From positions 8,858-72,857 of the forward strand of contig JAGXNS010000002.1 in assembly GCA_019894855.1 (NCBI GenBank): DNA of 64,000 nucleotides, written 5' to 3'. Every line of letters begins with the position of its first letter. Positions within the stretch are counted from its first letter, which is position 1. Positions 36,989 through 37,489 of this stretch are shown in pieces. The notes under the pieces were generated by a model. It worked only from the letters and a program-made list of their open reading frames with translations, ran no database searches and was not told where the DNA came from. The stretch is from Promethearchaeota archaeon (GTDB taxonomy: Archaea > Asgardarchaeota > Lokiarchaeia > Sigyniarchaeales > SOKP01). Made by a program: the position numbers and the translations under genes.

Positions 36989-37195
36989 TTAAGAAAGAAC
37001 TTCTAAAATTTTAGTTAAAATTCGCGCTTTACCACCTGTAGATTGAAGCAGAGTCTTTCCACATACTAAACATTCTACATCCGTAGCGGAACAACCGAAA
37101 ATTATTTGTTGGTTTCCACAATTTAAGCACTTTACTCTTAAAAACCTACTTTGGGGTTGGGGGATTAATTCCTTATTTGCTTTTCTTTTTGGTAT
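36989..37195 (-). CDS. rps27e: 30S ribosomal protein eS27 (ATA start; missing from the ORF track)
   Basis: (M)[74 protein letters not shown] 7 nt upstream; follows rpl44e. Confidence 0.95.
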
Positions 37196-37207
37196 AATAT
37201 AACACCT

Positions 37208-37489
37208 TTAAACTTCTTGAAGTTCGAACTTTTTAACTCTATATGATTTAGAATACTGTTTTTTTTTACACTTTGGGCATTCTAATATTGGTAATGACCG
37301 TTTATTTACTTTGGCGTTCTTGTGAAATATTTCCTTTGGAAAGGACCCGTAACCCCTCTTTTTTCTCTCTAATCTTCTTCTTCCGTGATTGAGCGATCGT
37401 TCTTTTCCCTTTTTATAAAGCGAAACACTGTGCAGAGTATGAGATCTACAGTTTGGGCAATAGCGATTTATTGTACGAGGGTATTTCAT
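37208..37489 (-). CDS. rpl44e: 50S ribosomal protein eL42 (L44e)
   Basis: YCPNC..HT.H, GRRR..RK..GYG, LECPKC. Confidence 0.95.
   Translation of the reverse strand: MKYPRTINRYCPNCRSHTLHSVSLYKKGKERSLNHGRRRLERKKRGYGSFPKEIFHKNAKVNKRSLPILECPKCKKKQYSKSYRVKKFELQEV

Follow-up and report, generated by a model that had tools for sequence, protein, structure and literature searches.

A probable AUA start codon for ribosomal protein eS27 and apparent ATT, ATA and ACG starts in a lokiarchaeial genome

How is translation of a ribosomal protein initiated when its reading frame holds none of the three canonical start codons? The question is raised by a minus-strand gene pair in a stretch of 64,000 nucleotides (nt) from a Promethearchaeota archaeon (GTDB lineage Archaea; Asgardarchaeota; Lokiarchaeia; Sigyniarchaeales; SOKP01; GenBank assembly GCA_019894855.1, contig JAGXNS010000002.1, positions 8,858 to 72,857 of the forward strand), which is called the window in what follows. 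There rpl44e, coding for ribosomal protein eL42, is followed by rps27e, the frame of ribosomal protein eS27, and none of the 72 codons between the rpl44e stop and the eS27 stop is ATG, GTG or TTG. This had been seen in an earlier note, made from the letters of the window, which proposed that the gene starts at AUA or AUU. The answer favoured here, given a probability of about 0.85 on the comparison of sequences, is that eS27 starts at an AUA codon which is selected by a Shine-Dalgarno (SD) site and read by the initiator Met-tRNA (anticodon CAU). An SD-led near-cognate start is, as a kind, already known. What is new is that an essential ribosomal protein relies on it, that ATG and ATA have been exchanged repeatedly, and that such starts are frequent in an archaeal genus.

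The eS27 frame and its start position

The features of the locus are collected in Table 1. The junction between the two genes reads GAA GTT TAA AGG TGT TAT ATT ATA CCA AAA AGA on the minus strand, and the rpl44e stop is in frame with eS27. The complete eS27 frame that the earlier note had placed directly after rpl44e is borne out: Pfam family PF01667 (Ribosomal_S27e) matches its translation with 75.1 bits (cut-off 24.5), profile positions 1–54 of 55 falling on residues 14–67, and the eL42 family is recognised upstream. The C4 zinc ribbon (CxxC ... CxxC), which is the defining trait of the eS27 family, is present in the translation as KCLNCG ... ECLVCG. The AGGTG word claimed as SD is likewise found in its place before the ATA, at the modal spacing of the genome: among 1542 long frames, GGTG lies 7 nt before the start in 19 cases, 8 nt in 14 and 4 nt in 3.

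Table 1. Features of the rpl44e–rps27e locus (window coordinates; ORF, open reading frame)
Feature	Position	Strand	Remarks
rpl44e (eL42)	ATG 37489 to TAA 37210-37208	minus	first cistron of the pair; ORF list, Pfam PF00935 Ribosomal_L44, 83.4 bits
SD core AGGTG	37207-37203	minus	immediately 3' of the rpl44e stop
ATT	37198-37196	minus	near-cognate, one codon 5' of the ATA; minor alternative start; 4 nt from AGGTG
ATA, inferred eS27 start codon	37195-37193	minus	7 nt from AGGTG, 12 nt from the rpl44e stop
A-rich codons CCA AAA AGA AAA GCA AAT AAG	37192-37172	minus	encode a Lys/Arg-rich N-terminal tail
eS27 coding sequence	37195-36989	minus	68 codons from the ATA, plus stop TAA 36991-36989

The evidence that carries the AUA start is an interchange of ATA and ATG among close relatives, which the earlier note had named as the thing to look for. 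The genus comprises 42 species genomes. An eS27 match is present in 40 of these and is truncated by a contig end in one, which leaves 39 readable 5' ends. At one and the same aligned position the codon is ATA in 10 species (the source genome G000, G002, G004, G008, G011, G048, G051, G056, G012 and G043) and ATG in 29, and the codons that follow it in the 39 congeners are CCN/ACN/CAA AAR. Canonical eS27 starts are present in all 12 relatives read from the rest of the order, outside the genus, the single-contig genomes G032 and G038 among them. On a maximum likelihood tree (quick search; pyrB, L44e, S27 and TFS proteins; 46 rows, 579 columns) the ATA label requires three changes, at least two of them forced by well-supported branches. 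Eight of the ATA species, including the source genome, form one clade (SH-aLRT, the Shimodaira-Hasegawa-like approximate likelihood ratio test, 99), G012 is nested in the sister clade of this group together with three ATG species, and G043 is placed elsewhere.

The codons that precede the ATA vary and the ATA itself is invariant. In the eight-species clade they are TAT, ATT, TTT or CAT and then ATT or ATC, the codon directly before the ATA being ATT in seven of the eight members and ATC in G056; it is CTC in G012 and AAA in G043. The latter species has an in-frame TAA two codons upstream of the ATA (TAA AAA ATA CCA), so that its eS27 start cannot lie further upstream. Throughout the genus the rpl44e stop is found 12–15 nt before the eS27 start. 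It is in frame with eS27 in the eight-species clade and likewise in the ATG species G001, G023, G016 and G057, and out of frame in the ATA species G012 and G043. The interchange, the conserved place of the SD site and the upstream stop of G043 support AUA as the start among the two codons that had been proposed.

The GTG of the SD site lies 7 nt upstream of the start, whether the species has ATA or ATG. A match to the SD of at least 5 nt (AGGTG or AGGTGAT) is present in all 10 ATA species versus 7 of the 29 ATG species, with a mean predicted duplex energy of −7.25 kcal/mol in the former and −4.59 kcal/mol in the latter, the anti-SD used for these energies being a consensus and not one read from the source genome. 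The assembly contains no recognisable 3' end of 16S rRNA. The stronger SD looks like a compensation for the ATA. Downstream of the start, the N-terminal A run of eS27 is 10–15 A long in the relatives: some 15 A come straight after ATA CC in G011, G048 and G056 (L011, L045 and L046) and about 10 in the other clade members, the frame being intact everywhere. This A-rich tract may keep the start region unstructured.

Several results argue that the frame is a genuine gene. In the source genome (84% complete, 32% G+C) eS27 is the single Pfam match above the cut-off, the second match (20.7 bits) being below it and inside a 309-residue frame; the 40 genomes of the genus in which eS27 is matched have one match each (E ≤ 1e-8), and rpl44e adjoins eS27 upstream in all 46 loci read. 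Judged from codon differences, eS27 is evidently under strong purifying selection in the ATA species, with 633 synonymous versus 9 nonsynonymous differences (53 core codons of the 10 ATA copies, summed over 45 pairs). The ATA does not come from a G-to-A error either, a doubt that the earlier note had raised. Contigs from public runs of two separate studies cover it with 0 differences, one of 508 nt at a depth of 123 spanning 37050–37557 (X1) and one of 214 nt spanning 37038–37251 (X3); no variants are listed in them at 37193–37195. As the orthologues are not all ATG either, both refuting conditions set out in the earlier note came out negative. Note that open frames which lack a canonical start are not in themselves rare: 702 of the 10022 frames of at least 50 codons in the genome are of this sort, and they are mostly non-coding shadows. 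What goes beyond chance here is that such a frame is the sole eS27 copy and is under strong purifying selection. A codon-usage log-odds score over the 1911 frames of at least 40 codons lacking a canonical start had no power to pick genes (the eS27 total is 3.2), and for this reason SD-anchored counts with off-spacing controls were used for the genome-wide survey.

Non-canonical starts elsewhere in the genome

In a scan of the whole genome, a codon was counted when it stood 5–9 nt after an SD word (GGTG or any 5-mer of AGGAGGTGATC), had an in-frame stop at most four codons upstream and opened an ORF of at least 100 codons. For non-canonical codons only, no ATG, GTG or TTG was allowed within the next 12 codons; this filter was not imposed on canonical codons, so that the non-canonical share is if anything undercounted. 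The SD-led starts number 91 for ATG (off-spacing controls 2 and 5), 36 for TTG (2 and 12), 22 for ATT (3 and 3), 15 for GTG (1 and 50), 5 for ATA (0 and 1) and 4 for ACG (0 and 0). ATT, ATA and ACG together make up 31 of the 173 SD-led starts counted, about a sixth. Comparison codons of equal abundance give 1 (TTA) and 4 (GAA), and AAA gives 7, of which 5 are directly beside an ATT or ACG start. A stricter scan restricted to GGTG yields 15 ATG, 13 ATT, 11 TTG, 7 GTG, 4 ATA and 2 ACG. The gene of eS27, being too short, is outside these counts, and that of UvrB is counted twice, under ATT and under ATA. On this evidence eS27 appears to be one instance of a genome-wide initiation at ATT, ATA and ACG.

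Pfam domains were compared with the position of the first canonical codon in 17 such genes. In 11 of them the domain begins well upstream of that codon (UvrB, a Gtr1/RagA GTPase, the RuBisCO large chain, TatD, a PIN protein, a GFO/IDH/MocA oxidoreductase, an aminotransferase, eS28, SMC, a PIN_6 protein and FTR1), in three it does so by at most five codons (DeoC aldolase, DsrE and Pop5), and in the last three Pfam is uninformative on the start (HhH-GPD, polyprenyl synthase and PheT). In some genes a stop codon stands immediately 5' of the non-canonical codon, as in TAA ATT of TatD and of the aminotransferase and TAG ACG of the PIN_6 protein. The SD-led ATT, ATA, ACG or AAG/ACG starts of the RuBisCO large chain, TatD, the PIN proteins, the oxidoreductase, the aminotransferase, SMC, FTR1 and two small GTPases are spread over contigs C66, C88, C83, C99, C110, C126, C104, C159 and C55 of G000 (loci L048–L063); the Pfam check covered all of these genes except the small GTPase on C55.

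Counted in this way, a pooled 800-kb sample of five further species of the genus gives ATG 30, ATT 5 (controls 0 and 1) and ATA 2 (controls 0 and 1), the non-canonical starts of the GTPase and of the aldolase being conserved in this sample. The first 800 kb of the out-group G032 give ATG 30, ATT 2 (controls 2 and 1) and ATA 1 (controls 1 and 0). These figures suggest that the excess of non-canonical starts belongs to the genus; their direction fits, though counts this small do not establish it.

The gene of UvrB (14159–16168, minus strand) provides a second non-canonical start within the window. It has no canonical start for 62–63 codons and its frame opens with TAA ATT ATA ATA TCC, the GGTG being spaced 5 nt from the ATT and 8 nt from the ATA. 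The first canonical codon lies beyond the Walker A region (Pfam ResIII covers residues 12–86). A methyltransferase gene (23565–24239, minus strand; MTS and related families from residue 51) begins ATG GAG AAC AGA TTT TAG GCG ATT ACG ATA AAC, with an in-frame TAG five codons past the ATG and the next canonical codon 53 codons on. Either read-through of the TAG occurs, or this gene starts past it, at the ATT, ACG or ATA.

Proposed initiation at AUA and the alternatives

In the favoured reading rpl44e and rps27e would form a two-gene minus-strand unit in whose mRNA the AGGTG pairs with the 16S rRNA tail and thereby holds the small ribosomal subunit. This pairing would place the AUA, 7 nt downstream, in the P site, where the normal initiator Met-tRNA (CAU) would take it despite the mismatch at the third base. 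With the initiator tRNA reading the AUA, methionine would be the first residue and the protein would begin Met-Pro-Lys-Arg-Lys, the Met being probably removed. A weak AUA would be tolerated because start choice is lax on the SD-led genes of the genus and because the SD is better than in the ATG versions of the gene.

A number of points weigh against this reading. AUA starts are reported to work at 1–2% (0.1–3%) of AUG in E. coli (bioRxiv 10.1101/063800), and AUA and AUU starts to lower expression in Staphylococcus aureus (PMC13009471). Such a low efficiency fits a ribosomal protein badly, unless the lineage reads AUA much better, and it is doubtful that a weak start serves to limit or regulate eS27. 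The ATT or ATC just upstream of the ATA in the eight-species clade is also near-cognate. The link between SD strength and ATA comes from just two to three independent lineages and a consensus anti-SD. The sole clearly metatranscriptomic run, X16, spans only 36959–37154 and 37273–37438, the junction being outside; its contigs, with 6 and 10 differences, are those of a relative, and they may even derive from DNA in the library. Lastly, the rpl44e stop is only 12 nt upstream, so that terminating ribosomes could contribute.

This last point leads to a variant with the same start site, in which the AUA is used mainly by less choosy ribosomes fresh from rpl44e, by termination-reinitiation. The short distance between the rpl44e stop and the eS27 start throughout the genus is in its favour, as is the gene of eS28, which in its clade likewise has no canonical start and closely trails its upstream gene; termination-reinitiation is also reported to exist in archaea (PMC6728339). 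The other non-canonical starts tell a different story: the end of an upstream same-strand ORF is found at −60 to +30 nt in 8 of the 32 SD-led ATT, ATA, ATC or ACG starts versus 42 of the 91 ATG starts, and coupling is therefore not the general licence for non-canonical codons. Moreover, gaps of about 20 nt are reported almost to abolish reinitiation in Haloferax and E. coli, overlaps being the rule (PMC10666635), so that the 12-nt gap of eS27 is already unfavourable, though some room remains. A predominant role of reinitiation is judged unlikely.

A start one codon earlier, at the AUU, would give a protein beginning Met-Ile-Pro. ATT is the commonest non-canonical start in the genome (22 versus 5 for ATA), and seven of the eight members of the clade have it at this place, the eighth having the equally near-cognate ATC. 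But G012 and G043 keep the ATA behind a CTC and an AAA, the 4-nt spacing between AGGTG and ATT is seen 3 times against 19 for 7 nt, and the alignment sets the ATG of the remaining 29 species against the ATA and not against the ATT. Use of the AUU as the eS27 start is thus improbable. Still less credence is given to editing of the mRNA, by which AUA would be made to read AUG (for example by A-to-I conversion of the third base) and initiation would be canonical at the RNA level. A single A-to-G-like change would suffice and would account for the tolerance of an ATA in a highly expressed gene, but it fails to explain the ACG starts or the far more numerous ATT starts, and A-to-I editing of mRNA is not known from archaea.

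Expression as a fusion with eL42, by read-through of the rpl44e TAA, or by frameshifting (+1) from the GTG that lies out of frame in the SD, is very improbable. The rpl44e stop is indeed in frame with eS27 in the eight-species clade, and the GTG (37205–37203) opens a 10-codon frame across the A-rich tract. However, the in-frame layout is shared with four ATG species, so that it is not tied to ATA, and the same GTG belongs to the SD in ATG species. Since rpl44e ends in another frame in G012 and G043, the latter with its extra in-frame TAA, read-through is excluded as a general mechanism, in agreement with the earlier note, which had held a fusion to be the less likely alternative. Furthermore, eL42 and eS27 sit in different ribosomal subunits, so that one fusion could not serve both.

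That eS27 is a decaying or silent copy, or its ATA an assembly error, has next to no probability: the gene is missed by gene callers, none of the best 120 of 172 proteins (E ≤ 1e-10) from a collection of 5.8 billion is identical to it or comes from the ATA clade (the best of these are 93–95% identical), and the nine database relatives read have called starts (eight M, one V) and none of them the N-terminus of the ATA clade, but it is the only eS27 of the genome, the differences among ATA copies are overwhelmingly synonymous, and the ATA recurs in 10 independently assembled species and in the contigs of two studies.

A reassignment of AUA to methionine, as occurs in some mitochondria, was considered and ruled out: the internal ATA of eS27 (CAA CAA ATA ATT) stands at a position where relatives have Ile (QQII, QIVF, QIIF).

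Known systems and the initiation machinery

Near-cognate starts are textbook rarities that throttle expression, and ATA and ATT are among the starts allowed by NCBI translation table 11. For GTG and TTG, switches of start codon are reported to have been set against the neutral rate (PMC5622118). In E. coli, infC and pcnB are reported to be the only two near-cognate cases confirmed, and the low efficiency quoted above for AUA to hold also for AUC, AUU and CUG (bioRxiv 10.1101/063800). Initiation of eS27 would resemble that of infC and pcnB, which start with AUU, in the use of an SD-led near-cognate AUN codon and a normal initiator tRNA. It would differ from them in that their AUU keeps expression low whereas eS27 is a stoichiometric ribosomal protein, and in that the host is an archaeon with aIF1 and aIF2, not IF3, in which such starts are 31 of the 173 SD-led ones. 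Four S. aureus sites, infC (AUA), ccpN (AUA), cvfC1 (AUU) and citZ (AUA), are reported to be conserved among relatives and to have an extended SD at proper spacing, their weakened initiation being shown by start-site ribosome profiling and reporters (PMC13009471). The better SD in all 10 ATA versions of eS27 is a likeness to these sites; the difference is that they are four, in one bacterium, and measured, whereas the codons of the lokiarchaeial type are far more frequent and are known from sequence.

For archaea, a "rare ATT start codon" is proposed for the tubulin AtubA in an Asgard (Kariarchaeaceae) metagenome-assembled genome (PMC13394414), by the same kind of inference as here, though for one gene of another lineage and, in the account given there, as a rarity. 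Ribosome profiling of Haloferax volcanii is reported to place about 30% of the putative alternative initiation sites on near-cognate codons (PMC7261190), so that archaeal ribosomes can sit on such codons; these sites differ in that they are set aside by the authors as possible false positives and are not main starts of conserved genes. The literature searched, which lacks most subscription journals and supplements, yielded no description of frequent non-canonical starts in Asgard archaea.

An initiator-type tRNA gene is present in the source genome (G000:C149:5074-5190, plus strand), with anticodon CAT and three G-C pairs beside the anticodon loop; its acceptor stem can be closed with A1-U72 once an insert in the T arm is removed. 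With this anticodon, either AUA is accepted with a third-base mismatch or C34 is modified, which is invisible in DNA. The insert is apparently of about 35 nt; the gene is missed by the Rfam tRNA model, and ARAGORN draws a poor T arm for it. The tRNA set as a whole is incomplete (14 by ARAGORN, 21 by Rfam RF00005), and one initiator-like CAT gene was read.

The archaeal start-codon proofreading factor is aIF1 (PMC7531240). Its gene in the source genome (SUI1 family; G000:C113 around 17085–17087, minus strand; L064:1789-1791) has no ATG, GTG or TTG before the zinc knuckle. An ATT AAA GA behind AAAGGTTGTGA is conserved at one position in all 15 main-type copies of the genus (relatives L065–L093); the remaining copies are two divergent and ambiguous ones and one cut at a contig end. 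The starts read in other genera are TTG, ATG, GTG or, in 2 of the 12 out-group genomes, ATA. The layout resembles that of bacterial infC, where a proofreading factor is autoregulated through its own weak start (AUU or AUA). This is a resemblance only, and the ATT start of aIF1 is a lead towards why the lineage may be lax.

There are consequences for annotation and for the comparison of lineages. Gene finders limited to ATG, GTG and TTG cannot call eS27, with the effect that an essential ribosomal protein looks absent from these genomes, and UvrB, RuBisCO, TatD, SMC, small GTPases and more are cut short if called from the first canonical codon. A near-cognate share of about a sixth that includes a ribosomal protein would imply that start-codon stringency differs between archaeal lineages. 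Asgard archaea are the closest known relatives of eukaryotes. Since the two are reported to share the aIF1/aIF1A/aIF2 core of start selection (PMC7531240), a lax lineage with aIF1 itself on AUU would be a natural system in which to study what sets stringency.

The gene of eS28 (L056:198-203 = G000:C119:1527-1532, plus strand) has TTA in 13 species (14 copies), namely the clade with the source genome plus G044, at the place taken by TTG, GTG or ATG in the other 29 (relatives L094–L123 and L209–L220). This TTA stands 7 nt after GGTG, the ideal spacing, and is preceded by ATC in 12 of the 14 copies; three codons past it comes an ATA, replaced by ATG in three species and by ACA in one. In the SD-anchored scan TTA is not enriched as a start genome-wide. 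A possible common explanation, put forward tentatively, is that the start rule of the genus is relaxed, AUU and AUA (and probably ACG) being ordinary and reasonably efficient SD-led starts even for ribosomal proteins. The changes from ATG to ATA in eS27 and from TTG to TTA in eS28 of the 13-species clade, each of which removes the third-base G, would then be cases of it, and the conserved AUU of aIF1 would suggest a feedback loop on stringency, an archaeal counterpart of infC.

Two eS28 copies with differing N-terminal tails are found on two contigs of G048 (L210 and L211); they reflect either a duplication or the presence of two strains in one bin.

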